Shown: in pieces, positions 8 to 16,990 of the stretch
Numbering within the stretch: the stretch's first letter is position 1
How the letters are laid out: every line of letters starts with the position of its first letter
DNA from: Rhodothermales bacterium
GTDB lineage: Bacteria > Bacteroidota > Rhodothermia > Rhodothermales > VXPQ01
Reading direction: 5' to 3'
Assembly: GCA_040904565.1 (NCBI GenBank)
Contig: JBBDTI010000074.1
Location: 3,619 to 20,737 of the forward strand
DNA: 17,119 bases
Translations under genes and position numbers: made by a program
The notes under the pieces: model-generated
What the model saw: only the letters and a program-made list of their open reading frames with translations
Databases searched by the model: none
What the model was told of the DNA's origin: nothing

Positions 8-1828
8 TTAGTTGCCGATCCATACGCTCTTGTTGATCGTTCCCGACGGCGTCGCCCCGTTGATCGTACGCCCGCTTTCCTGGAACGCAGACACGACCTG
101 ATCGGGTGTGGCTGTCGGATGGTTCGCCAGGTAGACGGCGGCGGCGCCGGAAACCATCGCCGCGGCGGGCGACGTACCCGTCGTCGTCGGTGACTTCGTC
201 GTCGAAGACTCGTGGGTCGAATTCACCGTTTCCAGCTTTTCACCCGGCGCAAGGATGTCGACCATGCTGCCGTAGTTAGAGAAGCTGGAAAAAACATCCG
301 TCTTTCCGTACGAACCCACCGTGATAGCCTTCACGGCATGCGCCGGCGTGTAAGTCGAGGCATCCGTGGCGCCGTTGCCGGCCGATACGACCACGACGAC
401 ACCAGCATCGACGGCGGCATCAACCGCCTCGTCGAGGGAGATATACTCCGTCGTACCGATGTCGGCACCGAGGCTGATGTTCACGACCATGGGCGTCAGC
501 GGGTGCAGGGCTTTACGCTCCACCACGTAGTCCAGTGCGGCGATCACGTAGGCCGACTCCGCCGAACCGTCATCGCTCACGACCTTCATACTGAAAACGT
601 CGACGCCGGGCGCCACGCCTACGATGCCGTCGCTGTCGTCAATGGCCGAAGCGAGTGCCGCGACGTGGGTCCCGTGTCCGTCCGTGTCGTCACCGCCTTC
701 GGCATACGTGCATCCGTCCAGGATCTCGTCGTCGGCGACCTCGCAGTGCGTGAAGTCATAGCGGGCGGCAACGTTGATGTCGTCGCTGCTCACGCCGCTG
801 TCGATGAAATAGACTTCGACGCCCGCGGCATCACGCGTACCGGTCGCACCGATCTTTTCCATGCCCCAGGGCGTGATCTGCTCGGGATCATCGTCGATGA
901 GCGACGGACCGTTTCCTCCTCCGAAGCGAAAGCTCGGCTCCGCATAGCGAACGATGGGATTTACGTTGATGAAGCTGACGAATCGGCTCACGTAGCGGCT
1001 GGGCAGCGAAACGGCTATGCCGTTCATGACGCTAGTAAAGTCCGCGTAGCGCGAAATATACTCCCACCGCGTAAGCAGCTCCTCATACGTCATGCCCCAT
1101 CGCTGCAGCAGCTCGTCGAAGCCCAGCTCCTCCCAGCGCTGCAGCAGCTCGTCACGGGACAGCAGCTCCCAGCGCGAGAGCAGCTCGTCACGCTGCAGCA
1201 GTTCCCACTGCTGGAGATCCTCCAGGCGGCTGAGCAGCTCGTCGCGAGAGAGGAGCTCCCAGCGAGAGAGCAGCTCCCAGCGGGACAGTAACTCTTCGGT
1301 CTGCATCTCTTCCCAACGCGACAGCAGTTCGTCGCGGCTTAACAGCTCGTCACGGCCGAGCAGTTCGTAGCGCTGCAAGAGTTCGAAGCGCTGCAACAGC
1401 TCGTCCATGGACAGGTCTTCCTGCGTGTCGATCAGCTCGTAGCGCTGAAGCAGCTCGAAACGCTGCAAAAGCTCGTAGCGCTGCAACAGCTCGAAACGCT
1501 GCAGCAGTTCCTGCTTCTCCAACTCCGTCGTGGTTTCGTCCATACTGAGGACGAATCCCGTCTCGTACTCGTCCTTACCCACCGAGCGCGTGGCACGGTC
1601 GATCAGGTTCGCGTGACGCAGCTTCGAAACGTCGCCGCGCTTATTGGGCGCGTCGACGGCGTCCGCCGTCGGTGACTCCGGAGCCTCGTCGAGGCCCGCT
1701 ATCTGATCCGTACAACCGGTGAAGGACAGCGTCGCGGCTAGTAGAAACGCGATCGCCGAATACATCGTGGCCCGAAGCCGCGAGGGGCGATCGTCGAACC
1801 GGCTTGGTGTGAATATTGAGTATAACAT
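8..1828 (-). CDS. S8 family (subtilisin-like) serine peptidase, predicted lipoprotein, with a hexapeptide-repeat insertion in an I9-like pro-domain (paralog A)
   Basis: 606-aa ORF. Triad motifs FIDSG (Asp), GHGTHVA (His) and TGTSPAAAMVSG (Ser), oxyanion SAGN, plus NISLG and DILAPG. Hydrophobic signal ends in lipobox-like SFTG-C. I9-like elements (VMNGIAV...VRYAEP) follow the repeats. Confidence 0.93.
   Translation of the reverse strand: MLYSIFTPSRFDDRPSRLRATMYSAIAFLLAATLSFTGCTDQIAGLDEAPESPTADAVDAPNKRGDVSKLRHANLIDRATRSVGKDEYETGFVLSMDETTTELEKQELLQRFELLQRYELLQRFELLQRYELIDTQEDLSMDELLQRFELLQRYELLGRDELLSRDELLSRWEEMQTEELLSRWELLSRWELLSRDELLSRLEDLQQWELLQRDELLSRWELLSRDELLQRWEELGFDELLQRWGMTYEELLTRWEYISRYADFTSVMNGIAVSLPSRYVSRFVSFINVNPIVRYAEPSFRFGGGNGPSLIDDDPEQITPWGMEKIGATGTRDAAGVEVYFIDSGVSSDDINVAARYDFTHCEVADDEILDGCTYAEGGDDTDGHGTHVAALASAIDDSDGIVGVAPGVDVFSMKVVSDDGSAESAYVIAALDYVVERKALHPLTPMVVNISLGADIGTTEYISLDEAVDAAVDAGVVVVVSAGNGATDASTYTPAHAVKAITVGSYGKTDVFSSFSNYGSMVDILAPGEKLETVNSTHESSTTKSPTTTGTSPAAAMVSGAAAVYLANHPTATPDQVVSAFQESGRTINGATPSGTINKSVWIGN
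1046..1510 (-). repeat. Intragenic 18-nt/6-aa tandem repeat, ELL(Q/S)R(W/F/Y/D): 23 units + 5-aa spacer + 2 units
   Basis: Read directly from the translation, ELLQRF...EYISRY (155 aa). At DNA level, recurring gcagcagctc/cagcgctg with synonymous variation. Confidence 0.97.
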
Positions 1829-1937: not shown

Positions 1938-2058
1938 ATTCGCATCGGGTGATCTGGTGAATCTTGCCGCCTGAGGCCCCATCGCAGGCGCTGTAGGCGC
2001 CCGGCCGGCGTGCGGCCCGAAGACTCGTCATGCGCGCACGCGCTCGTACCGGCTGCCC

Positions 2059-2094
2059 AAAAAAAACCGGGCGGCACCTTTCGGTACCGCCCGG
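2059..2094 (-). terminator. Rho-independent terminator after protease B
   Basis: Minus strand reads CCGGGCGG-TACC-GAAA-GGTG-CCGCCCGG followed by T8, about 45 nt downstream of the stop at 2140. Confidence 0.92.
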
Positions 2095-2139
2095 CTGCTC
2101 TCTCTCATCAAGAGCGATGGTTATATCGAAGGAGGGAGT

Positions 2140-4017
2140 TTAGCCCTTCCCCTTCTTTTTCTTCTTTCCCTTTTTATCGTCTTTCTCGTCACCGCCGATC
2201 CACACGGTTTTGTCCGTCGTGCCCTTCGGCGCGTTCTTGACGAGTTTCTCGCCGCTCTGGTCGAGCGCCTTCTCTACGTCCTTGGCGGACGCGTCAGGGT
2301 TCTGGGCGAGATAGACGGCGGCGGCGCCGGCGACCATCGCCGCAGCGGGCGACGTACCCGTGGACGTAGACTTCTGATAGCCGGTAGCGTCGTCCGAACC
2401 GACCGTCTCCAGCTGCTCGCCCGGGGCAAGAATGTCGACCACCTTGCCGTAGTTCGAGAACGTGGAGAACACGTAGTTCTTCCCGTACGAACCGACCGTG
2501 ATCGCGCCCTTGGCGTGCGCCGGCGTGTACGTCTCGGCATCGGTGCTGCCGTTGCCGGCGGACACGACCACGACGACACCTGCCTTGGCAGCCGCATCGA
2601 CGGCCTCGTCGAGGGCGATGTACTCCGTCGTACCGATATCGGCGCCGAGACTGATGTTGGCAACCATCGGCGTAGACGGATTCGTCTTCTTGCGTGCCAT
2701 GATGTAATCGAGCACCTCGATGACGTAGGACGATTCCGCACTACCGTCGTCTCGGACGACCTTCATGCTGTAGACGTTCACGCCCGGGGCCACACCTACC
2801 ACACCATCGTTATCGTCGATGGCGGAGGCGAGTCCGGCCATGTGCGTACCGTGACCGTCCGTGTCCAGCCCGCCCTCTTCGAGCGAACAGTCGTCGAGAA
2901 TGACGTCATCCTCGACCTCACACTGGGTCACGTCGTAGCGAGCCGCGACGTTGACGTCCGAGCTGCTCACGCCGCTGTCGATCATGTAGAGCTCGACGCC
3001 GTCGGCATGACGCCCATCCTCGGCGCCTATGTACTCGAGACCCCACGGCGTGATCTGGCTCCCGTCGCCGTTGAGCACGGGACCCGGATTGCCGATATTG
3101 AACCCGATGTCGGGCTCGGCCCACGACACGTGCGGCTGACGCTGGATAAAGCTCGCAAAGAGTCCGACGAGTCGACTCGGCATACGCACGGCGATGCCGT
3201 TGAAGACCTCGTTGTAGTTGCCGTAGCGCTGCAGCAGCTCCCACCGCTGCAAGAGCTCGTCGAACGTGAGTCCCCATCGCTGGAGCAGCTCGTCATAACC
3301 GAGCTTCTCCCAGCGCTGCAGCAGTTCGTCCTGATCGAGCTTATTCCATCGCTGGAGCAGCTCCCAGCGCTGAAGCAACTCCCAGCGCTGCAGCAGCTCG
3401 AGGCGATACACCAGCTGCCAGCGAGACAGCAGCTCCCAACGCTGCAGCAGCTCCCAACGCTGAAGCAACTCATCACGCTGTAGAAGCTCCCAGCGCTGCA
3501 GCAGCTCGTCGCGCGTCAACAGCTCGTCGCGGCCCAGCAGCTCGTAGCGCTGTAGCAACTCCCAGCGCTGAAGCAGCTCGTCACGCTGTAACAGTTCGTC
3601 ACGGCCGAGCAGCTCGAAACGCTGCAAGAGCTCGAAGCGCTGCAAGAGCTCGAAGCGCTGCAACAGCTCGAAGCGCTGGAGCAATTCCTGCTTCTCAAGG
3701 TCGGTCGTGTTGGAATGCAGGCCCAGGATGATGCCCGTCGATTCGCCGTTCTTGCTCGTGTGGACCGTCGCGCGGTCCATCAGGTTGGCGTGGCGAAGTT
3801 TCGTGATCGGTTCCATCTTGGAAGATACGTCCGGGATGTCCGAGTCGACCGCGGTCGTCTCAGATCCCCCGGCATCTTCAAGACCGGCGACCTGATCGGT
3901 ACAGCCCGTAAACGAAAGGACCGCAGCGAGCAGGAATGCAATCGCCGAATATAACGTCGCTCGAAGTCGCGTAAAGCGATCCTCCGAGGTCCTTGGGATG
4001 GATAGTGAGTTACGCAT
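2140..4017 (-). CDS. S8 family (subtilisin-like) serine peptidase, predicted lipoprotein, with hexapeptide-repeat pro-domain insertion and Lys-rich C-terminal tail (paralog B)
   Basis: Motifs MIDSG, GHGTHMA, SAGN, TGTSPAAAMVAG and lipobox-like SFTG-C. Start moved from 4161 to ATG 4017 because the N-terminus then aligns with paralog A (…RLRAT[ML]YSAIAFLLAA) and both ATGs share upstream AACGAGCAA. Confidence 0.93.
   Translation of the reverse strand: MRNSLSIPRTSEDRFTRLRATLYSAIAFLLAAVLSFTGCTDQVAGLEDAGGSETTAVDSDIPDVSSKMEPITKLRHANLMDRATVHTSKNGESTGIILGLHSNTTDLEKQELLQRFELLQRFELLQRFELLQRFELLGRDELLQRDELLQRWELLQRYELLGRDELLTRDELLQRWELLQRDELLQRWELLQRWELLSRWQLVYRLELLQRWELLQRWELLQRWNKLDQDELLQRWEKLGYDELLQRWGLTFDELLQRWELLQRYGNYNEVFNGIAVRMPSRLVGLFASFIQRQPHVSWAEPDIGFNIGNPGPVLNGDGSQITPWGLEYIGAEDGRHADGVELYMIDSGVSSSDVNVAARYDVTQCEVEDDVILDDCSLEEGGLDTDGHGTHMAGLASAIDDNDGVVGVAPGVNVYSMKVVRDDGSAESSYVIEVLDYIMARKKTNPSTPMVANISLGADIGTTEYIALDEAVDAAAKAGVVVVVSAGNGSTDAETYTPAHAKGAITVGSYGKNYVFSTFSNYGKVVDILAPGEQLETVGSDDATGYQKSTSTGTSPAAAMVAGAAAVYLAQNPDASAKDVEKALDQSGEKLVKNAPKGTTDKTVWIGGDEKDDKKGKKKKKGKG
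3223..3687 (-). repeat. Intragenic 18-nt/6-aa tandem repeat, ELLQR(W/F/Y/D): 23 units + 5-aa spacer + 2 units
   Basis: Read directly from the translation, ELLQRF...ELLQRY (155 aa). Confidence 0.97.
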
Positions 4018-4081
4018 AGTATTGCTCGTTAATGAACGTTGTGCGCGGATGTAGACCGGCACGGCAGATTTACTCGTATCC

Positions 4082-4127
4082 AGGGTATCGCGGACTCCCG
4101 ACGCGCCTAAATAGGCAACTCGACCGG
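4082..4127 (-). promoter_or_regulatory. Putative promoter of protease B, homologous to 1892-1937, with a degenerate box TAGG-N8-CCGG
   Basis: GGTATCGCG(4084-4092)-N16-AAATAGG(4109-4115). On the minus strand TTAGGC-N17-TACCCT, versus TTGGCC-N17-TACCTG for paralog A. Confidence 0.58.
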
Positions 4128-4179
4128 TTTTCTCGTCAGACCTGCTGAAATACGGGTGCACAAAAGTGCCTATACCACG

Positions 4180-4512: not shown

Positions 4513-5169
4513 TCAGGCCGCCTTCCGCTCGGAAAACCACTGGATGGCGAACCGGTCGAGCTCGGACGTGCTGTCGAGATCTAGCTTGCGCTTCATATTC
4601 TCCCGGTGTGAGTTGACGGTCTTCGGACTCACGTGCAGCGCCTCGGCGATCTGACGCGGCTTATATCCCTGACCGATCAGCTCCAGCACCTCCATCTCCC
4701 GCTCGCTGAGCTCAGAGACTTTCTCGTCGTCGCTTTCTTCGTCGGAGGCCAGCGATCGTGCCAGCACGTCCATCATGTTCTCGCCGATGTACACTTTTCC
4801 GGACAGCACGCGTCGGATCGCGTCGGCCAGACGCTGAATGGACTCTTTTTTATTGACGAACCCCTTCGCGCCGGATTTCAATACCTTCTCGAGGTAGTCC
4901 GGCGCGTCGTGCATGGAGACGACCAGCACCGGCAGGTCCGGCCAGCGTTCGTGAATGGTTTCGATAAGATCGAGACCGCTCTCCCCATCCAGAACCAGAT
5001 CCACGAGTACGATGTCCGGCAGCTCCTTCTCGAGCAGCTCGAGCGCACCCGCACTGTTTTCCGCCTCGCCGGTCACGGAGAGATCCTCCTCGCGGTTGAG
5101 CAGGCGGCTCACGCCATGGCGTACGATCGGATGATCGTCTACGATAAAAACGCGGGCTTTGTCGGGCAT
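4513..5169 (-). CDS. NarL/FixJ-family DNA-binding response regulator (REC + LuxR-type HTH)
   Basis: VFIVDDHPIVR, phospho-acceptor in IVLVDLVL, VVSMH, GAKGFVNK, and HTH LSEREMEVLELIGQG...IAEALHVSPKTVNSHRENMKRKL. Confidence 0.97.
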   Translation of the reverse strand: MPDKARVFIVDDHPIVRHGVSRLLNREEDLSVTGEAENSAGALELLEKELPDIVLVDLVLDGESGLDLIETIHERWPDLPVLVVSMHDAPDYLEKVLKSGAKGFVNKKESIQRLADAIRRVLSGKVYIGENMMDVLARSLASDEESDDEKVSELSEREMEVLELIGQGYKPRQIAEALHVSPKTVNSHRENMKRKLDLDSTSELDRFAIQWFSERKAA

Positions 5170-5181
5170 GTCTTCAGCGTG

Positions 5182-7167
5182 TCAGGTAGTTGAATGGATC
5201 TCTCCGGCATGGCGCTCCGCGGAGGCCGGCAGCGTACAGACCACGCGCGTGCCGCGACTCCGCCGGCGACCGATAGACAGCACGGCGCCGATCGTCTGGG
5301 CACGATAGTGCATGGTCCGAAGGCCCAGGCCGCTGGCGGTCTGCTCGACCCCCTCCGGCAGCCCGATGCCGTCGTCCACGACCTGCAATACGGTCTTCCC
5401 CCGCTTCGTGGTGAGGGAGATGGCGACCTGTTCGGGTTTTCCGTGGCGGACCGCGTTGTTGACGGCCTCCTGTGCAACCCGGTACATGTGCAGGGCGATT
5501 TCAGGATCTTGTATCGGTCGATACGTCCCTGTCTTAAGCGTACAGGAGATGCCGTAGACGCCCTCGACGTGAGAGCGAAGCCGCTGGAGAGCTGCCTCGA
5601 GACCGTTTTCCTCCAGTTCCACAGGAAGCAACAGCTTGCTGAGGCTGCGCGTGTGGTCGATCGCGTCCTCCACGAGGTAGGTAATCTCGGATGCCTCTCC
5701 GGACAGGTCGTCTTCTCGCGCTTCCAGCGTCTGCGCAAGCGTCTTGCTCAAAAAACCGATGCCGGTGAGCAGCTGCCCCAGACCGTCGTGCAGATCTCGT
5801 CCCACGCGCTTTCGCTCCCTCTCGCCGGCCTTGAGGATCTCCTTCTCGAGGATGCGCTGCTCGGTGATGTCGTGGAGCACACCAATGACGCGGCCGGACC
5901 GGTCGTCCCCGCCCGAGCTGAATTCCATTTCCACCACGCGCTCCTCTCCGTCGGGCCGTCGAATTCGAAATTCGCCGCTTCGCACCTCGCCATCCGCTCC
6001 CATCGAGAACAGGTCGAACACGCGGCGGCGATCATCCGGCTGAATCTGACGTGCGATGTGGAATAACGCCGGGCGAAAAGAGTCCTTATCCACCCCGAAG
6101 ATTCGATACGTTTCGTCGGACCACATCAATGCCCTGCTTCCCGGCATCCAGCTCCAGCTTCCTAAGTGCGCGATGCGCTCGGCCTCCTTGAGAAGCGATT
6201 CGCTGGTGCGCAGCGCGCGCTCTGCTTCCATGCGTTCGTTGACCTCGTGGCGCAGTTTACGGTTACCCTGTTCCAGCTCCGCCGTACGTGCGGCCACTTT
6301 CCGCTTGAGCTCCATCCGGGCCGTCCGCTCAAATCGGTCGCGATCGATCGCAATCCCGGCGACCTGTGCAGAGACATCGAGCAGCCGGAAATCTTCATCG
6401 CCCGGTTCGGGCGTATCGGGATGAAAGAGAACCAGTACGCCGTTGGCGTCTCGATCCCTGGAGACAACCGGCATAGCCCAGCACGAGGCGTATCTAAAGC
6501 CCGACCAGTCCGGTTCATCGAGGGTCAGCGTGCGCACTCTCTCTCTCGGCGGGACGTCGAGCGCAACCGGAAGCGGCAGATCATTCTCCCATTCCTGCTC
6601 GAGGATAAGCACCTCGTCATCCGTGAGTCCCGGTGCGACGAGCGGGCGGATGAGATTCTGGTTCCCATCGAGCACCAGGAGGGCAACGGCTACCCCCGGC
6701 AGCTGCCCTTCGAGGAAGTAGGCCAGCGTGTCGAGCGAATCGATCAGCGGCTTCCCTCGGGCGACCAGCTCGAGGAGACTCTTCTGCCCGATCTGAAGAT
6801 CGGCCAGCCGTCGATACTCCGAGATGTCGCGCGCCACGACCTCCAGCGCCGTCGTGCGACCTTCCTCTTCCACCAGGTGCGCCTCCTGACCCAACCAGAC
6901 TACGTGGCCGCTGCTGGATAGAACGGGGACCTCCGCATACGTCCGCAGTTCGCCGCTCCGCACCTGGCGCCCATAGGTCGAGAGTATACTCCGCACGCTT
7001 CCGGGGGCCAGAAATTCATCCACCCGCCGACCGACGACGTCGTCGCGATCGTAACCGAGCAAGCGAGTCACGGCCGCGTTCACGTATCGAATGCGACCGG
7101 CCCGGTCGAGCGTATAGATCAGGTCGCCGGCCTGGTCAACCAGCGATTGGAATGCGAAAGGCTCCAT
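5182..7167 (-). CDS. Cytoplasmic sensor histidine kinase, PAS-GAF-like-PAS-HisKA_3-HATPase
   Basis: PAS (DLIYTLDRAGRIRYVNAA...ARDISE), GAF-like segment (SCWAMPV...AGIAIDR), coiled coil, second PAS (AHLGSWSW...WSDETYRIFG...HDITEQ), H-box RDLHDGLGQ, N-box QEAVNNAVRH, DDGIG and GLGL. No transmembrane segment seen. Start ATG 7167 preferred over 7200. Stop is 12 nt from the regulator's start. Confidence 0.95.
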   Translation of the reverse strand: MEPFAFQSLVDQAGDLIYTLDRAGRIRYVNAAVTRLLGYDRDDVVGRRVDEFLAPGSVRSILSTYGRQVRSGELRTYAEVPVLSSSGHVVWLGQEAHLVEEEGRTTALEVVARDISEYRRLADLQIGQKSLLELVARGKPLIDSLDTLAYFLEGQLPGVAVALLVLDGNQNLIRPLVAPGLTDDEVLILEQEWENDLPLPVALDVPPRERVRTLTLDEPDWSGFRYASCWAMPVVSRDRDANGVLVLFHPDTPEPGDEDFRLLDVSAQVAGIAIDRDRFERTARMELKRKVAARTAELEQGNRKLRHEVNERMEAERALRTSESLLKEAERIAHLGSWSWMPGSRALMWSDETYRIFGVDKDSFRPALFHIARQIQPDDRRRVFDLFSMGADGEVRSGEFRIRRPDGEERVVEMEFSSGGDDRSGRVIGVLHDITEQRILEKEILKAGERERKRVGRDLHDGLGQLLTGIGFLSKTLAQTLEAREDDLSGEASEITYLVEDAIDHTRSLSKLLLPVELEENGLEAALQRLRSHVEGVYGISCTLKTGTYRPIQDPEIALHMYRVAQEAVNNAVRHGKPEQVAISLTTKRGKTVLQVVDDGIGLPEGVEQTASGLGLRTMHYRAQTIGAVLSIGRRRSRGTRVVCTLPASAERHAGEIHSTT

Positions 7168-7185
7168 CTGGCATCGATTCCGAGG

Positions 7186-7204
7186 GTAGGTGTGGTACAC
7201 CTAC
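7186..7204. promoter_or_regulatory. Inverted repeat GTAGGTGT-GGT-ACACCTAC (TAGG-N9-CCTA) just upstream of the kinase
   Basis: Perfect 8-bp arms, about 20 nt upstream of ATG 7167, with the same half-sites as the N8 boxes. Confidence 0.45.
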
Positions 7205-7259
7205 TAGAATCGACGGCGCACGCCCAATATTAAGCGCGCGCTTCACGAGGCAAATCTCG

Positions 7260-8177
7260 CTAGTTGACGAGCTCTTCGTATGTAGAGATGTGGGAAGGGT
7301 CGAGACGGGTAAGATGGTCATACGCCTCGGAGCTGCGCTGCCATCCGTCGAAAACCGACGGAAATTCCGTGTATTTTGCTGAAAAGAACAGATCTATGGC
7401 GTACTGCCTGGACACGTCCTGGAACAGCTCATCGAGAGAAACCAGGACTTCCAGCATCGTCGCCCGAGCCGCATCGGTCTCGGTGGTGAAGCGGTCCAGT
7501 CCACCAAAATGATAGTCGAAATACGCCTTGCGAAGCGGACGAAGGCGAGGATCGAGGATCTGGGTGATCAGATTCACGCGCCCCCGGTCACTGCCTACCT
7601 GCGACCAGCCGGGGGCGGACTGCGACTGGGCGCGCTCCGCAATGCGGCGCGCCGTCGCGAAATGGTCCGAGCCTCCGTACTCACTGAAGGTGTCGTAATC
7701 GTACCCCAGCATGACGTAGGCGTAAAAGTCGATGATCGAAACGAGCGGATCGTACTGGTCGAGATTGAAGACCAGCGGCTGGCCCTGAGCGTAGTTGAAC
7801 TGCCACTCCGTATCGTTGAACTGCACGACGGTCGTGTGCTGCGTCGTGTTATAGATCGGCCTGCGCGAGGCGATGATGAGCCGGGCTCGGAAGCTCGTCA
7901 ACGAGATGGCCTCCTCGACCGTGACCTGCATCGTGCATTCGATTCGCTCGTTCTCGCGAAAGCGGTCCTCCGTCCACGAGCGCTTGTTGACGTACTCTTC
8001 GATTCGGTCCTCCAGGTCACTCAAAAACCCAAAATCAGAGCCGCTCAAGCTGCTGTAATTCACCGAAACGGTGCAATTGAACTCCTGCGCCTGCACATCC
8101 GACGGTGCGGAGGCCACATACATGCAGGCACACGCCAGCAGTACCCCGGCACGCACCAGAAAACGAGTCATCCACAT
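7260..8177 (-). CDS. DUF4835 family protein (T9SS-associated PorD-like), exported
   Basis: Signal peptide, then AQEFNCTVSVN...YVNKRSWT...ERIEC...RRPIYNTT...FYAYVMLGYDYDTFS...GW, the pattern I recognise as DUF4835 of Bacteroidota/Rhodothermota. Start uncertain (8201/8177/8171). Confidence 0.8.
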   Translation of the reverse strand: MWMTRFLVRAGVLLACACMYVASAPSDVQAQEFNCTVSVNYSSLSGSDFGFLSDLEDRIEEYVNKRSWTEDRFRENERIECTMQVTVEEAISLTSFRARLIIASRRPIYNTTQHTTVVQFNDTEWQFNYAQGQPLVFNLDQYDPLVSIIDFYAYVMLGYDYDTFSEYGGSDHFATARRIAERAQSQSAPGWSQVGSDRGRVNLITQILDPRLRPLRKAYFDYHFGGLDRFTTETDAARATMLEVLVSLDELFQDVSRQYAIDLFFSAKYTEFPSVFDGWQRSSEAYDHLTRLDPSHISTYEELVN

Positions 8178-8487
8178 CAGCAACGTTCCGTCTTCATCCA
8201 CAACCTATCCATAGCAAGCGACACCGACACAGTACCACACCCGGAAGCCCCGCCGTTCAGCGGTTCATACTGGAAGCGCACCACCCCAGTTTCACCGGAA
8301 GTAACACCTCGCATCACACGGCACATCACCTGAAGGTTACATCCTACCCTCGCTCGTGTCTGTGTAGTACGAAGACGATCGAATACGGTGCCCTCGCCGT
8401 GATATAAAGACGCCGAGCGGAAACCCACCGGCATCTCCGTCTCCGTTTGACGAGGCCTCCGTACGAACGACATCGACGGGTACGTTC

Positions 8488-9297
8488 ATGTGCCGCTCTC
8501 TGTACCTTTTCGTTCTCACTTTCGTGCTCGTCCTGCCGGCATCCGGGCAGACGGCGCTCCGGGGCCCGCGCAGCGCGGCGCTCGCTGGGGCGACCAGCGC
8601 GCTGTCCGGCGACGTCTACGGCGAGGTGAACCCCGCGGCGTGGGCGCAGGCTGAAGAATTTGGGCTGCTGCTGCATGCCGCGCAGTTGTACGGTCTCCGA
8701 GAACTCAGATTCGCCGGTGCGCTCCTCATCTTACCCTATCGCACCGGATCGGCCGCGCTCGGCGGCTCTACCTTCGGATTCGAGTTGTATCGGACCAGCA
8801 CGATAGATATCGGATTGGCCCTGAGGGTTCGAGCCGGGTCCTATAGGCATTTCTCGATCGGGTTGCGCTCCCGGTGGCGGTACGTGACGATAGACCGATA
8901 CGGAAGCACTTCGGCACTTGGATTGACGGCCGGACTCCAACTGCCCGTAACGCCGTTCATCACGATCGGCGCCGCCGCCCAGAATGCCGTCGTCGGCGGT
9001 CCGTATCGATCCGACGTGCCGCGACGTCTGACGGTCGGCGCCGCATTCGTGCTCACGCCTTCCTTCGCCGCGATGGTGGACGTGTCGAAAGACGTTCTAA
9101 CCCCGGTCGCCGTCTCCACGGGGGTCGAAATATCCCCCGTTCAGGTCGTCGTGCTTCGTCTTGGCGCCGGCGCCTCACCGCCCCTCCTCGCTGGAGGCGT
9201 CGGACTCCGGCTGGCAGGTTTTCAGGCGGACGTGGGAGCCGTACATCACGCCGTTCTCGGCTGGAGTCCGTCCGTATCCGTCCTGCTGGAGAGGTAG
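8488..9297 (+). CDS. Putative outer-membrane beta-barrel protein (PorV/PorQ-like N-terminal motif)
   Basis: Signal peptide, GPRSAALAGA...NPA motif, alternating amphipathic strands and C-terminal HAVLGWS. Sits 4 nt upstream of the HhH gene. Confidence 0.7.
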   Translation: MCRSLYLFVLTFVLVLPASGQTALRGPRSAALAGATSALSGDVYGEVNPAAWAQAEEFGLLLHAAQLYGLRELRFAGALLILPYRTGSAALGGSTFGFELYRTSTIDIGLALRVRAGSYRHFSIGLRSRWRYVTIDRYGSTSALGLTAGLQLPVTPFITIGAAAQNAVVGGPYRSDVPRRLTVGAAFVLTPSFAAMVDVSKDVLTPVAVSTGVEISPVQVVVLRLGAGASPPLLAGGVGLRLAGFQADVGAVHHAVLGWSPSVSVLLER

Positions 9298-9301
9298 CGG
9301 T

Positions 9302-11272
9302 ATGCTGGCCGCACTGTTCGCTCTCGCCGTCATTCAGGCAGGTCCTGCTGCTCCCGACACGAGCGGTGTGGATCAAATCGTGGAATCGCTGCTCGAGAAT
9401 CGAATAGACGATCAGGACGATGCGAGCCGGGAGCAGGACGCCGGCCATCTCGTAGAGCTGCTCGAAGACGCTCTGCACCGGAGAGTGCCGATCAATACCG
9501 CCTCCGAAGAAACGCTGCGGGGTCTGGCCGTACTGTCGGAAGTTGACGTGCGCCGCATCGTCCACCACCGGGCGGAAGCCGGTCCTCTGCGTGCGGCTGC
9601 CGATCTGCTTGCAGCCGGACTCTCAGACGAGGCCGTGCGTCAACTCGAGCCGTTCATTACGTTTAACCTCCATCAACCATCATCCGCGCGCCGGATCCGT
9701 GTCGACCTTATCCAGCGATGGAGCCGGCGCATCGACGTCGGTCGTGGTTTCCAGCCGTCGTCTGCGACAGGTTCGCGGTATCTGGGGGCGCCCCTCGCCT
9801 TCCAGTCCAGACTGCGGCTCCGCGTCGGTGAGCAGGTCTCGGCCGGCCTTACGCTAGATCATGATGCCGGGGAGCCCTTCGTCTGGCGGCCCGGCCGCCG
9901 CCGATTGGGCCCCGATTACATCTCATTACATGGTACGTTGGACGGCGTCGGACCGGTAGAACGACTCGTAGCGGGCAGCTTCAGCGTGCAGGTCGGAGAA
10001 GGCCTCGTCATCGGACAGCGTACCGCAGCGATGGCCGCCGTACGCACGGCTACCGTAGACCGCCTTCTGCGACCCCATTCCTCGTCTCGAGAAGGTGCCC
10101 ATTTTCGGGGTCTCGCCATCCAAACCAGGTCCGTTCACGGCCTAACGCTCGGTGCGTTCGTCTCGCTCCATCGCACCGATGGACGCCTGGATACGCTCGA
10201 TGGGAGCTGGCACCTCGCTGCCGCGGGGGCCCACCGCACACCCGGCGAGCAGCGCGGCCGGAAGCTCCTTCGTGCTCGCACGTCCGGCGCGCTGTTTAGT
10301 TTTCGCTTCGGCCCGCTCCATGTAGGTGCCCTCACCGTATACACGCGCTACGGTCCAGACAAACCCTACCGCACGTCGACTTCCGGCACCATTTTTGCTG
10401 GATGGGTCCGGCCACGATGGACCGTAACGGCAGAGATGGATCCGAACCTCTTGCACGCGGCGGCAACCGCCATCTTTCGAGGTCCGCGTGACGTCACGAC
10501 AGCGATCCGATTCGTCGGCACGAGATCCGGCACGACCAGAGTGCATTCACCATCGGGCGTGAATAGCAGGGGTGAAAGCCTGGATATGCGGGCCTGGGAT
10601 GCTGAATACAGCTTCCGGCCGTTCCGATCGTGGACCTCCGCCACCAGATTCCGCTACCGCGTGAAAGCTCGTATCGACGAGCCGGCCTACGAACGCCGGT
10701 CCGTGGACACACGTCTGGAATTCGCCCCCCACCGATGGCTCCGCGTACAAGTTCGCGGTACGAGCAGCTCGACGGAAGAAGCCGCGGCGTGCCTCGCGGG
10801 GCGGCACGTACTCCGCTGCTCCACGACCCGCACCCGGAACACGGCACGCCTGGAGATCGAATACCGACACAGTCCAACGTTCCGCTCGCGGTCACGCATC
10901 GAACTCGTCGACGCCACGGGGCCGGCCGGTCTCCACCAGGGTTTTCTCATCTACGAGGAAGTTAGATGGCACGCGGCCAAACGTCTCCAGCTCGATCTCC
11001 GATTGGCCACGTTCGAGACGTCCGGTACACGTGCACGCATCCATACGTTCGAGAACGACGTACTTTACGCCTTCAGCGTACCTTCTTTCGCAGGTCGCGG
11101 ACGTCGGCGGTACGTGCTCGCCCACGTCCGCGCGTCGTCGCGCCTCACCCTCCAGCTAAAAATGGCCGTAACGAACTATGTGGACGTGCGCACCGTCGGA
11201 TCGGGATTGGATGAAGTGGCAGGCAACAGGATTCGCGAGGTGAAGGTGCAGATTCGGTGGAAGACCGATTAA
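9302..11272 (+). CDS. Helix-hairpin-helix (ComEA/HHH_3-like) domain protein with C-terminal beta-rich, probably barrel, region
   Basis: PINTASEETLRGLAVLSEVDVRRIVHHRAEAGP is HhH-like. Also DHDAGEPF, GSFSVQVGEGL, FENDVLYAFSVP and terminal KVQIRW. ATG 9302 follows GGAGAGG, so it is preferred over 9161. Confidence 0.82.
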   Translation: MLAALFALAVIQAGPAAPDTSGVDQIVESLLENRIDDQDDASREQDAGHLVELLEDALHRRVPINTASEETLRGLAVLSEVDVRRIVHHRAEAGPLRAAADLLAAGLSDEAVRQLEPFITFNLHQPSSARRIRVDLIQRWSRRIDVGRGFQPSSATGSRYLGAPLAFQSRLRLRVGEQVSAGLTLDHDAGEPFVWRPGRRRLGPDYISLHGTLDGVGPVERLVAGSFSVQVGEGLVIGQRTAAMAAVRTATVDRLLRPHSSSREGAHFRGLAIQTRSVHGLTLGAFVSLHRTDGRLDTLDGSWHLAAAGAHRTPGEQRGRKLLRARTSGALFSFRFGPLHVGALTVYTRYGPDKPYRTSTSGTIFAGWVRPRWTVTAEMDPNLLHAAATAIFRGPRDVTTAIRFVGTRSGTTRVHSPSGVNSRGESLDMRAWDAEYSFRPFRSWTSATRFRYRVKARIDEPAYERRSVDTRLEFAPHRWLRVQVRGTSSSTEEAAACLAGRHVLRCSTTRTRNTARLEIEYRHSPTFRSRSRIELVDATGPAGLHQGFLIYEEVRWHAAKRLQLDLRLATFETSGTRARIHTFENDVLYAFSVPSFAGRGRRRYVLAHVRASSRLTLQLKMAVTNYVDVRTVGSGLDEVAGNRIREVKVQIRWKTD

Positions 11273-11881: not shown

Positions 11882-11962
11882 GCGCGACCGACCCCTCGAC
11901 CGGGCATCGGCCTCGGTCGCGACGTGCTTCGGATACCTCCGTCCACGTTCACTGCATTACCG

Positions 11963-12847
11963 ATGTTGATCGCGCATGTCTGCCGGCGAACGGGAACCGG
12001 CATCAACGGCTTCCTCTTGATTGCCCTCCTCATATTGACAGCCGGTTGTGCCGGAGAACGTACGTACGAGGTGCGGGGGCGCGTGGCGGGATTCGGGGAC
12101 GACGCACATACCCTTATCGTCGAACATGAAGACATTCCCGGCCTCATGCCGGCGATGACGATGCCGTTCGACGTTCTCGACCCGACGGCCATCGAGAACC
12201 TGACTGTCGGCGACGCGATCGCCTTCCGGCTCTCCATGACGGGTGACCGGTCGTGGATCGAGGACATCACCGTGCTCGCCGACGATGCCGTCGCCGAACA
12301 TCCGGCGGGCCGACCCGATCCCTTTCAACCGAACACCGAACGCATCCTCGATCGTGGGGACCGCATTCCCGACGCCGAGCTGCTTACGCACGCCGACACG
12401 ACGCTGCGGCTGGCGTCTCTACGTGGACGGAGAGTCGTGATCACGTTCATCTATACCGAATGTCCGATCCCGGATTTCTGTCCACTCATGTCACGCCGGT
12501 TCGCCGAGCTGCAGCCCGAACTCGAGCGGCTGAGCGGTCCACCGACGCACCTTCTCAGCATCAGCTTCGATCCGTCTACCGATACGCCGGACGTGCTGCG
12601 CGACTATGCAGATCGATATACGTCGGATCTATCAAACTGGACCTTCGCTACCGGAGATCAGGAGACGATTGACCGGCTGGCAAACCGATTCGGGGTGTTC
12701 TATCGAACGGATGCCGAACAAATCATCCATAATCTGGTCACCGTCCTGGTTGACGCGGACGGTCACGTTCGCGACATATGGCGCGGCAATGAGTGGCTGG
12801 CCGACGACGTCCTCGACGCGCTACAGCAGATGAATCCGGACGCCTGA
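11963..12847 (+). CDS. SCO1/SenC family lipoprotein with N-terminal CusF-like copper-binding domain
   Basis: Lipobox LTAG-C, HEDIPGLMPAMTMPF (CusF-like His/Met site), TFIYTECPIPDFCP, SISFDP..DTP and IIHNL. Start uncertain. Confidence 0.9.
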   Translation: MLIAHVCRRTGTGINGFLLIALLILTAGCAGERTYEVRGRVAGFGDDAHTLIVEHEDIPGLMPAMTMPFDVLDPTAIENLTVGDAIAFRLSMTGDRSWIEDITVLADDAVAEHPAGRPDPFQPNTERILDRGDRIPDAELLTHADTTLRLASLRGRRVVITFIYTECPIPDFCPLMSRRFAELQPELERLSGPPTHLLSISFDPSTDTPDVLRDYADRYTSDLSNWTFATGDQETIDRLANRFGVFYRTDAEQIIHNLVTVLVDADGHVRDIWRGNEWLADDVLDALQQMNPDA

Positions 12848-14113: not shown

Positions 14114-16990
14114 TCACCGGAACGTCACGAACCAGTCTGACGGCTCGAGCCGGTAGACGGGTGCGGCACGAAGCGTAAGGTCGATGTTGTGAAAGAGTCG
14201 CAGCTGGATGCCGAGCCCCGCGCCCACCGTGCTCCGCCGCGATGCGTGCCCCGTGATGCCCTGCATGGATTCGGCGAAACCGTAGACGAAGAGGGCCTTG
14301 ACGAAGACGGGCGGCAGCACAAACCCGTCGTCGACGTACCACAGCGCGCGCGTCAGCTCGAGGCCGGCGGTGCCGAACGTACCCGCGTCCAGAAAGATTG
14401 TCTCGATCTCGTACCCACGCGGGTAAAACGTGGTGAGATCGATGAGGCCGCCGCCGTTCTGCGCCAGGAGCCGGGCCGAGACCTTGATGGCCGTTCCACC
14501 GCGCCGCAAAAAAGGAAGATAGGTGGATGCATCCACACGCAGCCAGCGAGACATCCGGTTGCGCTCCGACCACACGTCGAAGGAGGATCGGACGGCCACG
14601 TGGGTACCGGTATTGGGCTGCAGATCCCGTGGATTGGCCTGCATGCGGTAGCTCAATGAGGCGAATGGACGCAGGGTAACACGCCGTTCGCTCCCGCGTA
14701 CGGTATCGCCTCGACCGTCGAACAGCCGCTCGCTGCGAACGAAGGCCGCCAGTCCGCCCGCGATCGCCGTCCGAAACACGTTCGACCGCAGTACGACGGG
14801 AAGGTGCACGGCAACGCCCGCACCATATTCTTCACGTCCCACCCGGAGCGTATCCATTCCCTGGGACGTGTTCCGGCGCACTACGACCGTTGACGGCGTC
14901 CTGTAGATTTCGGCCGACGGTCGGAGTAGAAAATCACTCGAACGCAGCTCCGCACGTCCCCACAGCGCCCGGTTCTGGTAGAACAGGTTCGTATGGGCCG
15001 TCCACAGCGCCAGCGGATCCGCCCACTCCAACCCGACACCTCCACCGAATCCAAGATGCACGCCACCTCCCGAACTGGAGGGACGCTGGTACACGACGAA
15101 CGGATAGGCCGCTCGTGGACGCAGGTTCGCGATCGGCATGTAGGCGGTGCCGCCTGCGTTTTCCTCCGCTTCGCTGCCATCGGCCGATGCCGCGCCCGTG
15201 GTCGCAACGATCGTCGGAGGCGGACCCTCGAACCGGCTCACGGATGCCTCCGACCACGAGCGTCCGCCACCCGCATCGAAGGGTATCGCGGCCAGGTCGT
15301 ATCTCTCGTGCCGATAGTGTACGAAAGCGAGCGTGCTCCCGTCCGGAGAGAGCGCAGGCTCGAACGCGCCATAGGCCGCATTCGTGACCTGCACGACGCG
15401 GTCTTCCTCCCGGATCCACGCAAACACGTTCACCACCCCACCCGGATCCGCTGAAAAGAGCATATGTCTCCCATCCGCACTCCACGACGCGTCGTAGATC
15501 GATCCGTCCGCGAACTGCATCCACGGCTCGAACCGGGTAAGCCGTCCCGCGTCAACGCGCGCACGATAGATGCCCTGCCAACCGTCCCGGTGCGCCACGA
15601 CGGCGACGTCGTGGCTCTGCGGATCCGGGTGAAGCGCCAGGATCCTCGTTCCTTCGACGGCCCCGACGACATCGACCTCGCCGGACGGACCGATCCGTAC
15701 CCACTCGTTGAATCGATCCACGTTGCGCAGCGCCCAAATCCCCCCCCCCTCCACGGCAACCGGCGCGAACACCCGTTCGTCCGTCGTCACACGCTCCACC
15801 TCTCCCGTCACCACATCGAGCCGAAAGACATCGGCCAGGGCACGCTCCGGGTGCAACCTATCGATGACGTACCGCGAAAAGAGAACGCTCGATCGCCGGT
15901 CATCGAGCGTGAACTGTACGTCTTCCGTGATGGATTGCACCGCGACCGGGTGCCGTACGCCCGTCTGGACATCCACCCGATAAAATCCGGGGCGATCGTG
16001 GTAGCTTCGCGCGTATGTCAACAGTGACCCGTCACGGAGCCACACCGGTCGCCTGAACGAGCTCCCCGCGGCCGAAGCCAGGGTCCGCACCCTCGTCACC
16101 TCCCCCAACGAATCCCGGACGGCTCTGCCCTCAGTCCGCGCACGTTCCTGCAGGTCGACTGTCAGCCGCCAAGGGCGGCGTCCCGTCGCCAGCCAGAGCG
16201 GGGGCCCGAATCCAAGCAGCGGAAAACGGTAATAGATGTCGCGAGCCCGCCGAAAGAACGGGATGTCGCCATCGACGGCCAGGTATTCGAAGAGGTGCGC
16301 GCCTCCGATGTAGTAGCGGTCGAATGGCCGGGTATAGGCGGGCGGTTCGAGCATCTGAACGAGACTCCAGGGGTTGGACGAGTCCATCGCAGCGCGAAAC
16401 TCCATCCCTGCCATGGAGTGATTCAACCGGCCGGCACCCGGCCGAACGCGACTCTCCAGCCATACGGCCAATCCCTCGTTGATTCCTCGCGGCGCCGACA
16501 GATTCAACGATCGCGCCAGATCCGGACCGATGTAGCGCAAGAGCCAGCCAACGCCGACACCACGACCCGATTCGGCATGCAGAGCATGTGCCAGTTCGTG
16601 CGGCGCGACGGTTTCGTGCCAGTCACGAAAACGCGGAGAGAGCGTATTTCCGCGCAACGGTACACCCTCTATCTCGATCCGTAGCGGCCGGGGGGTTACA
16701 AATCCGTTCGACCGATCGGTGAATCGATTCAGGACGACCGGAATGATCGACCGCCTGTCGAGTCCGATCCGTGCCCGCATTTCAGGAGCCGATGCCTCTA
16801 GAAGCCTGGCCATGGCGCCGGCCTCCTCATACAGCCCGACCTGATAGATCAGACGAAAGGGAGGGGCCGAGAAGTGCCGATACTGAACGTCCACCGGACG
16901 AGGACGCGGTTGATACAGCTGCGCGGCGACACGGCAAGGCAGCAGACCTGCTGCCATCAAAAGGATGGCGAAAGGGAGAAGTCGACGCAT
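14114..16990 (-). CDS. Exported multidomain protein: gluzincin-like HExxH domain, TolB/PD40-type beta-propeller and C-terminal probable beta-barrel
   Basis: Signal peptide, HELAH (16586-16600) with downstream NEGLA, PD40-like repeats (ASWSADGR, PALSPDGSTLAF) and amphipathic strands ending ...WFVTFR. Confidence 0.8.
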   Translation of the reverse strand: MRRLLPFAILLMAAGLLPCRVAAQLYQPRPRPVDVQYRHFSAPPFRLIYQVGLYEEAGAMARLLEASAPEMRARIGLDRRSIIPVVLNRFTDRSNGFVTPRPLRIEIEGVPLRGNTLSPRFRDWHETVAPHELAHALHAESGRGVGVGWLLRYIGPDLARSLNLSAPRGINEGLAVWLESRVRPGAGRLNHSMAGMEFRAAMDSSNPWSLVQMLEPPAYTRPFDRYYIGGAHLFEYLAVDGDIPFFRRARDIYYRFPLLGFGPPLWLATGRRPWRLTVDLQERARTEGRAVRDSLGEVTRVRTLASAAGSSFRRPVWLRDGSLLTYARSYHDRPGFYRVDVQTGVRHPVAVQSITEDVQFTLDDRRSSVLFSRYVIDRLHPERALADVFRLDVVTGEVERVTTDERVFAPVAVEGGGIWALRNVDRFNEWVRIGPSGEVDVVGAVEGTRILALHPDPQSHDVAVVAHRDGWQGIYRARVDAGRLTRFEPWMQFADGSIYDASWSADGRHMLFSADPGGVVNVFAWIREEDRVVQVTNAAYGAFEPALSPDGSTLAFVHYRHERYDLAAIPFDAGGGRSWSEASVSRFEGPPPTIVATTGAASADGSEAEENAGGTAYMPIANLRPRAAYPFVVYQRPSSSGGGVHLGFGGGVGLEWADPLALWTAHTNLFYQNRALWGRAELRSSDFLLRPSAEIYRTPSTVVVRRNTSQGMDTLRVGREEYGAGVAVHLPVVLRSNVFRTAIAGGLAAFVRSERLFDGRGDTVRGSERRVTLRPFASLSYRMQANPRDLQPNTGTHVAVRSSFDVWSERNRMSRWLRVDASTYLPFLRRGGTAIKVSARLLAQNGGGLIDLTTFYPRGYEIETIFLDAGTFGTAGLELTRALWYVDDGFVLPPVFVKALFVYGFAESMQGITGHASRRSTVGAGLGIQLRLFHNIDLTLRAAPVYRLEPSDWFVTFR

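Follow-up and report, generated by a model that had tools for sequence, protein, structure and literature searches.

A hexapeptide array in the propeptides of two tandem Rhodothermales subtilases is very probably an in-place expansion of the first helix of an I9-like fold

In subtilases, the propeptide folds the enzyme, is cut off, and stays bound as an inhibitor. The I9-type propeptides, regarded as small, minimal domains, are the textbook case of a propeptide that is both intramolecular chaperone and temporary inhibitor. The stretch of DNA from a Rhodothermales bacterium studied here (the window, 17,119 bases in all, 61% G+C) codes on its minus strand for two tandem S8 (subtilase) zymogens, p1 (8..1828) and p2 (2140..4017), each of which features a 160-residue array of hexapeptides in its propeptide region. 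How did a repeat of this size come to lie within a propeptide, and what might it do for the attached enzyme? Our analysis makes it highly probable that the array grew in place out of the first helix (α1) of an I9-fold propeptide; its role can be proposed with less assurance.

The p1 array spans positions 1046..1525 on the minus strand (residues 102–261) and comprises a conserved lead-in, ELEKQ, followed by about 25 hexapeptide units. A first-pass annotation of the sequence had reported a hexapeptide array at 1046..1510, and it proved to be real: this segment is in frame within the p1 open reading frame (ORF), corresponds to residues 107–261, holds 19 strict ELLxRx units as counted by regular expression, and gives periods of 18 and 36 nucleotides in Tandem Repeats Finder (TRF) over 1096–1510. 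The p2 array (3223..3702, minus strand) is likewise 160 residues long, aligns with that of p1 without a single gap, and features 22 strict units, with the same TRF periods over 3238–3683. In p1, the sixth position of the strict units is occupied by W (seven units), D (five), F (three), Y (three), and L (one), and the degenerate units read ELIDTQ, EDLSMD, EEMQTE, EDLQQW, EELGFD, GMTYE, and EYISRY. Repetition of the ELLxRx pattern on this scale is far beyond chance, and as a by-product the repeat gives rise to two ORFs across the array on the plus strand (212..1291 and 1092..1370). The E, L, L, and R positions are written with many synonymous codons, which shows the repeat to be old and held at the protein level rather than a product of recent slippage: 54% of the codon pairs at these positions differ in p1 and 56% in p2, with Leu in the array coded by CTG, CTC, CTT, TTG, or TTA, Arg by CGC, CGT, CGA, or CGG, and Ser by both AGC and TCN. 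Within the window's own genome, the array occurs only in p1 and p2. Logan contigs from two runs cross the p1 array without an indel (X1 record 817–1647; X2 record 473–1499), though these runs may be the source sample and are therefore not independent support for it.

The catalytic portion of the two proteins is that of an S8 peptidase. The p1 ORF codes for 606 residues and p2, its tandem paralogue, for 625, with 66% identity between them; the longest ORF of p2 extends over 2140..4161, and the start shared with its orthologues, a conserved Met, lies at 4017. Peptidase_S8 (PF00082) is the sole Pfam match of both proteins (129.1 bits for p1, on residues 336–578, and 134.5 bits for p2, with a cutoff of 21.8), and every NCBIfam match was well under its cutoff (e.g., mycosin, 118.8 versus 278.75). 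The triad D343, H385, and S553 and the oxyanion Asn, N485, are invariant in an alignment of 76 sequences. We used this alignment to model p1 with AlphaFold2, obtaining a mean predicted local distance difference test (pLDDT) score of 79 and a predicted template modelling score (pTM) of 0.73. Structural alignment of the model with VIA-align delimits the subtilisin domain at residues 317–606 (11..880, minus strand), with residues 316–606 superposing on proteinase K-like enzymes and subtilisins at Z of 38–40 and a root-mean-square deviation (rmsd) of 1.6–2.0 over about 260 aligned residues. At the other end, p1 begins with an Arg-rich start and a hydrophobic stretch (a helix over residues 14–36 in the model), followed by a lipobox-like LSFTG-C39 (1712..1828, minus strand), with G38 and C39 each conserved in 90% or more of the 76 homologues. 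This N-terminus has the features of a lipoprotein signal peptide, which would make p1 a membrane-anchored zymogen. The putatively lipidated Cys is followed by a linker (residues 40–66; 1631..1711, minus strand), with pLDDT under 50 for residues 40–64, and the orthologues average 39% identity over residues 1–66.

Between this linker and the enzyme, the array is framed by two flanks that the model folds with confidence. The N-terminal flank (residues 67–101; 1526..1630, minus strand) consists of a KLRHANL helix (residues 73–79), a short strand (80–84), and β1 (87–96; EYETGFVLSM, with the GFVLSM segment inside the strand), with pLDDT of 88–95 for residues 71–100. The C-terminal flank (residues 262–316; 881..1045, minus strand) supplies β2 (259–264), β3 (270–276, with GIAV), α2 (277–289), β4 (293–298, with VRYAEP), and the junction to the mature enzyme, with pLDDT of 90–96 for residues 261–300. 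The flanks are thereby modelled in the β-α-β-β-α-β order at pLDDT of 85–96, in agreement with the earlier placement of the array between a first strand and an I9-type continuation. The top Foldseek match of the p1 model is the unautoprocessed pro-subtilisin E (3whi_B, E 2.9e-23, template modelling (TM) score on the target 0.81). With VIA-align, 339 of the 355 residues of 3whi_A superpose on model residues 88–606 (Z 42.9, rmsd 2.3) and 346 of the 395 residues of pro-Tk-subtilisin (2e1p) do so from residue 88 onwards (Z 42.2); PCSK9 superposes from residue 67, and the mature enzymes only over 316–606. Because the pro-enzymes align from residue 88 and the mature enzymes only over 316–606, about 80 extra residues, split by the array, take the place of the I9 propeptide. 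A further link comes from hhalign, in which the profile of 52 short-array homologues (described below) aligned to the N-terminus of the protein P0120 with a probability of 93.8% and E of 1.8e-7 over only 43 columns (β2–β4). This stretch lies within residues 58–130 of P0120, which match Pfam I9 at 31.7 bits (cutoff 21.2); the length of that match, 73 residues, is consistent with the size of about 70–80 residues that the first-pass annotation had given for I9 domains. The β1-to-β4 span of p1, residues 87–298, amounts to about 210 residues, 160 of them array, and so falls outside this compact size. Going by the model, the p1 and p2 pro-region has the I9 fold and would work like an I9 propeptide, though without formal membership in the Pfam family.

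The origin of the array becomes apparent from the wider protease family. Of 8,000 proteins scored in a homologue search, 2,940 reached E ≤ 0.001, with 39% identity for the best, and several of these bear source names of Rhodothermales metagenome-assembled genomes. They share a common N-terminal plan: a lipobox, KLRHxxL, β1 (GLIxxL), one to five hexapeptides such as KVLERY, KILDRY, or RIFSRY, and then the C-terminal half of I9. In P0013, for example, LEKQ, the lead-in shared with p1 and p2, is followed by three units and directly thereafter by the β2 sequence. Among the best 120 homologues listed, 16 carry arrays of decapeptides, and in 9 the N-terminus is too short; in the other 95, a loose regular expression applied to the entire region ahead of the His motif counted no copy of the motif in 12, one in 13, two in 29, three in 29, four in 9, five in 2, and six or more in 1. 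Thus, 82 of the 95 countable homologues have one to five units versus about 25 in p1 and p2. The same hexapeptide, in one to five copies, is thus seen at the same site across the wider family, and the earlier description of the array as "inserted" is accordingly misleading.

A run of three units, 18 residues in all, has a length compatible with the single-helix span from β1 to β2; the same span is about 25 residues long in the Pfam-positive P0120. In the p1 model, only the first 10–15 residues of the array are confident (pLDDT 85 for residues 101–110). Since three units fit the β1–β2 helix span and the start of the array is modelled with confidence, the α1 of this family is probably made of the hexapeptide module itself. 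The motif position appears to be α1, with the module reading x, hydrophobic, hydrophobic, x, Arg, aromatic. Judging from these sequence comparisons, the array is best seen as an in-place, roughly eight-fold expansion of the native α1 element, not as a foreign insert. Array-less paralogues or relatives in two other genomes (L031 at G006:C3 and L009 at G037:C284) have four copies of KIVRRW and of K(M/L)VQRY, respectively, at the α1 site; these four-unit forms may represent intermediate states of the expansion.

The same site has been elaborated in another way. In other S8 lipoprotein peptidases of the order, arrays of 6–10 decapeptides of the YGVTRRVLEE type lie between β1 and β2 (e.g., P0005, P0031, P0038, P0053, P0077, and P0092; loci L038–L043). 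The core of the decapeptide (hydrophobic, hydrophobic, x, x, Tyr) is that of the hexapeptide, to which each unit adds a Gly-(V/I)-Thr linker. This array appears to be an independent expansion and, as the hexapeptide and decapeptide arrays occur in different families, the propeptide site would have expanded at least twice. We found the decapeptide arrays in 9 of the 285 genomes of the order, distributed over three families (f17, 4/8; f10, 2/50; f5, 3/35), and in none of the 18 other genomes of the family of the present bacterium, f1. In one genome (G264), decapeptide matches were seen on six contigs (C340, C133, C164, C270, C318, and C389).

Conversely, the long hexapeptide arrays are present in 7 of the 285 genomes, every one of them in f1, where they occur in 7 of 19 genomes (including this one) and 7 of 8 genera; the remaining genus, g8 (12 genomes), has no array and no orthologue at E ≤ 1e-40. 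The orthologues fall into two clades, one (clade A) with ELL(Q/K/S/T)R units, comprising L003, L004, L005, p1, and p2, and a second with ELLER units, comprising L006, L007, L008, L011, and L024. When 1.84 billion representatives were searched exhaustively with the array in HMMER, 22 matches reached E ≤ 0.001, of which 21 are repeats of period 6 or 12 with no relation to it; the orthologues from the genomes are themselves missing from this library and from one of 5.8 billion clusters (best identity 39%), so that blanks in these searches are no measure of rarity. The sole array-like match among the 22 is P0128, a 72-residue fragment made of EV(I/L)QR(H/Y) hexapeptides. As a separate observation, p2 ends in a Lys/Gly-rich tail (KKGKKKKKGKG; 2140–2185, with TRF flagging 2146–2185) that p1 does not have, and some orthologues (L003, L004, L006, and L008) feature longer C-terminal tails rich in Gly, Lys, and Pro, reaching about 70 residues in L003.

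Is the expansion maintained by selection? It could be a functionless addition to a surface loop or helix, tolerated in a domain that is shed in any case: the propeptide is removed, α1 faces solvent, and the expansion with a different period at the same site in other families suggests that the site is permissive. The pattern of divergence speaks otherwise. First, averaged over pairs of nine full orthologues, identity is 0.70 for the array, a figure inflated by its repetitive nature, versus 0.61 for the catalytic domain, 0.48 for the N-terminal flank, and 0.35 for the C-terminal flank. Second, the ratio of nonsynonymous to synonymous substitution rates (dN/dS) is 0.05–0.24 in the array versus 0.14–0.31 in the catalytic domain and is lower or about equal in the array in all six pairs compared (for p1 and p2, 0.24 versus 0.25), these values being rough, as dS of about 1–2 is near saturation. 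Third, the gaps between orthologues are mostly whole units of 6 or 12 residues, and the units are not interchangeable: the first four or five have F, Y, M, or L at position 6, the later ones are W-rich with scattered D, N, or H, and clade A retains irregular Gly units (E-x-L-G-x-D and G-x-T-x-D/E) near the end of the array. Between the two clades, 177 of 267 aligned units have position-6 residues of the same class, versus 109 ± 8 after shuffling, a level reached in none of 2000 shuffles, although the pairs come from related sequences and are not independent, so that this result is not a probability. The substitution ratios indicate that the array is under purifying selection. Together with the retention of the array at a conserved length in 7 of the 8 f1 genera and the synonymous divergence between units, which rules out recent slippage, they leave a neutral expansion disfavoured and very hard to credit. 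As the length is fixed and the residues are unit-specific, the array would form a single structure of defined shape and not a chain of interchangeable units; the conservation of length and unit order across genera points to the same conclusion.

What this structure might be is constrained by the periodicity of the sequence. The power spectrum of hydrophobicity in the array peaks at period 6 (0.51), followed by 3 (0.35) and 2 (0.25), with only 0.085 at 3.6 and 0.058 at 3.43, which upholds the earlier statement that the period fits neither a heptad nor the 3.6-residue helical repeat; on these values (0.058–0.085 at periods 3.43–3.6 versus 0.51 at 6), we rejected a heptad or hendecad coiled coil. 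With a period of six, the hydrophobic patch turns by one third per unit, and so a helix made of such units would be greasy on all sides and would need packing from several directions. This fits an α1 that is buried in the short forms, and for the long ones it suggests a bundle of several helices. Both ends of the array are anchored in the I9 core, through the LEKQ lead-in and an exit of the form RY-A/G-D/N-F/Y; because they are fixed there, the chain must go out and return, which excludes a single long rod. AlphaFold2 models eight helices in the array (102–134, 141–158, 165–174, 179–190, 195–221, 225–234, 237–243, and 248–255), broken near the Gly and Asp units, and in the superposition α1 is on the side of the propeptide that points away from the enzyme. 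Most likely, on the strength of this model, the array comprises several helices broken at the Gly and Asp units, which project on the side where the propeptide faces solvent rather than the protease.

How such an excursion might matter for the enzyme is suggested by the course of subtilase maturation, of which the dissociation and degradation of the propeptide form the final, rate-limiting activation step (PMC10580911). We propose that p1 and p2 would be membrane-anchored S8 zymogens with an I9-fold propeptide whose α1 module was multiplied at its native site to about 25 copies. An appendage on α1 would leave the docking of the propeptide free and would alter its stability and its accessibility to proteases. 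A large and independently stable appendage could change both the grip of the cleaved propeptide on the enzyme and the rate of its degradation, thereby tuning the chaperone and inhibitor. The array would thus set the latency, i.e., the time for which the cleaved propeptide keeps the enzyme silent. Further, since the putative lipid anchor sits on the propeptide, its release would also free the mature protease from the membrane, and the array would then set the time of tethering as well. We regard this tuning function as tentative, somewhat short of an even chance.

For the reading as a whole, a helical excursion of α1 that tunes the stability and release of the propeptide, we consider the chances evenly balanced, and several results count against it. 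Pfam I9 (PF05922) gave no match to whole p1 or p2 at E ≤ 1, to the pro-region (P0143) at E ≤ 0.1, or to either flank at E ≤ 10; the earlier view of the flanks as an I9 domain is sustained by the AlphaFold2 fold and the superposition on pro-subtilisin E and not by Pfam. The hhalign support covers the C-terminal half only, with the N-terminal half unaligned, and belongs to the family profile rather than to p1 alone. Beyond residues 101–110, the array reaches a pLDDT of only 44–64 with a shallow alignment, so that its helicity is weakly supported. The mean hydrophobic moment in 18-residue windows is 0.16 at 100° versus 0.38 at 120°, meaning that no amphipathic α-helical face is present, and simple helix packing does not explain a period of six. 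To these are added the near-saturation of dS and the relatedness of the position-6 pairs given above.

The array might instead be a sacrificial multi-site substrate, i.e., a bait, fuse, or decoy to be cut by its own enzyme, the paralogue, or another protease, with the outcome either that the propeptide collapses and the enzyme is activated or that activity is absorbed close to the envelope of the producing cell. The preference of subtilisins is for hydrophobic residues at P4 and for large hydrophobic residues at P1. Each unit would offer a favoured site of this kind, with a Leu four residues ahead of the aromatic residue, and the model places the array on the solvent side of the propeptide. 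Equivalent cleavage sites, on the other hand, need no fixed length, no conserved irregular units, and no position-specific residue classes across genera; moreover, position 6 is Asp in 5 of the 19 strict p1 units, and the region of the enzyme's own pro/mature junction is unlike the unit. In the last step of maturation, a subtilase degrades its own propeptide (PMC10580911), and there is a reported precedent for activation through another protease that destroys the prodomain (PMC10128010). On balance, we regard such a sacrificial role as unlikely.

A similarly doubtful proposition is that the array is a spacer, stalk, or self-association module, which would hold the zymogen off or along the membrane or join it into inactive oligomers. 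The putative lipid anchor and the linker of about 25 low-confidence residues ahead of the propeptide would suit such a device; Leu- and aromatic-rich helices that are hydrophobic on all sides would tend to associate; and the dimerisation of another subtilase is reportedly driven by its prodomain (PMC10936178). The geometry of the array is at odds with a simple linear spacer, as its two ends join the I9 core next to each other. The excursion of α1 outlined above is our preferred reading over both.

The gene neighbourhood brings up one further reading. Upstream of the proteases, on the minus strand, Pfam searches identified a LuxR-type response regulator (4513–5169) and a PAS/GAF/HisKA_3 histidine kinase (5182–7200), and downstream in the contig they identified a 997-residue Reg_prop/Y_Y_Y/HisKA sensor (L033:3–2993). 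The order DUF4835, kinase, regulator, protease, and Reg_prop/Y_Y_Y/HisKA sensor is kept in all four other genera examined (G001, G002, G004, and G005), with 4513–8201 being the part of this conserved order that lies in the window. Shared ancestry may explain the synteny. The protease is single-copy at the syntenic place in each of these four genera, and thus the duplication that gave p2 and p1 would be particular to this genome.

Given this setting, the array could be a peptide cassette: after autoprocessing, the attached protease or the paralogue would cut the membrane-tethered array into some 20 ELLxR-aromatic hexapeptides with a role as signals or antimicrobials. Other kingdoms have repeated core peptides that are fused to enzymes, many near-identical units are here fused to a protease, and the gene lies between sensor kinase genes in all five genera examined (including this one). 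The conserved unit order, array length, and irregular units are unlike those of cassettes, which usually vary in copy number, and position 6 varies among W, F, Y, M, L, D, N, and H, so that no single product would result. Further, the eight window ORFs scanned include no tailoring or export genes, the neighbours being signalling genes only, and the ancestral one to five copies belong to a folded domain. We consider a cassette very improbable and likewise give very little credence to the idea that the hexapeptides serve as extracellular or periplasmic signals read by the flanking sensor kinases, which, if true, would make this a self-contained signalling module of protease plus precursor in a Gram-negative lineage.

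Logan contigs from three runs contain about 39 bases similar to window positions 2057–2095, together with 32 other bases, joined to the start of the window. This may reflect a strain variant or else a short element common to the regions downstream of the two protease genes; searching L016 for repeats, with the relevant stretch partly masked there, recovered only the array and no short element. The window also codes for proteins that are unrelated to the array, which were assigned by Pfam: a 703-residue protein with an HHH_3 domain (9161–11272), a CusF/SCO1-SenC fusion (11924–12847), and a 958-residue protein with PD40 β-propeller repeats (14114–16990).

How does the array relate to known systems? 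The Pfam searches of the proteins, the array, and the orthologues gave no described repeat family above threshold, in line with the first-pass annotation. LED_rpt (PF20854) was reached only by the orthologue L006, at 33.2 bits versus a cutoff of 59, and not by p1, p2, or L003; Gln-synt_C-ter and Peptidase_M78 on the p1 array, and Decapeptide (PF25296) on the 10-residue arrays, were likewise under their cutoffs. A sequence match of the pro-region in the PDB to a LIM-domain protein (9e5c_0q, E 7.5e-24) was rejected, as it reflects a coincidence of period-6 Glu residues with another period-6 repeat, with low posterior support. With the left-handed β-helix proteins built of hexapeptide repeats, the array shares the six-residue period and nothing more; this Hexapep fold was rejected, as there is no Pfam match and the model is helical rather than made of β coils. 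With heptad coiled coils, it shares only the helix-favouring residues. Nor does it resemble precursors with repeated cores, whether like ribosomally synthesized and post-translationally modified peptides (RiPP-like) or of the Kex2 type, given its conserved order and length, heterogeneous position 6, and exclusively signalling neighbours. A non-exhaustive search of the literature outside subscription journals turned up no account of an I9 propeptide with a repeat array in it; where the term "decapeptide repeat region" occurs, it refers to an unrelated Plasmodium protein.

The closest parallels are the I9 propeptides themselves. Those of subtilisin E/BPN' and Tk-subtilisin have the same order of strands and helices and the same docking on the catalytic domain as the p1 model; they are compact, whereas p1 takes about 210 residues from β1 to β4 through an α1 of about 25 units. 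The p1 propeptide further differs from them in the putative lipoprotein anchor and the conserved KLRHxxL segment ahead of it and in having no Pfam I9 match. Its short-array relatives (P0013, P0002, and P0030) have the lipobox, KLRH, β1, LEKQ, the hexapeptide, and the C-terminal half of I9 in common with p1 and differ in the composition of the unit, with position 1 mostly K or R and position 4 E, D, or S, as opposed to E and Q/S/K/E, respectively, in p1 and p2. The decapeptide peptidases (P0038, P0005, and P0031) share the site and the core with p1, with a period of 10 rather than 6. The array-expanded propeptide is, therefore, a variant of the known I9 type, in which one of the two helices would have been amplified about eight-fold and kept at a constant length, with selection on it no weaker than on the catalytic domain. 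With two Leu and one aromatic residue in every six, the repeat presents no single hydrophobic α-helical face, and its structure could reveal an undescribed arrangement of helical repeats. Together, the forms with one to five, about 20, and about 25 hexapeptide units and those with 10-residue units offer a natural series for studying how the stability of a propeptide times activation and release from the membrane.

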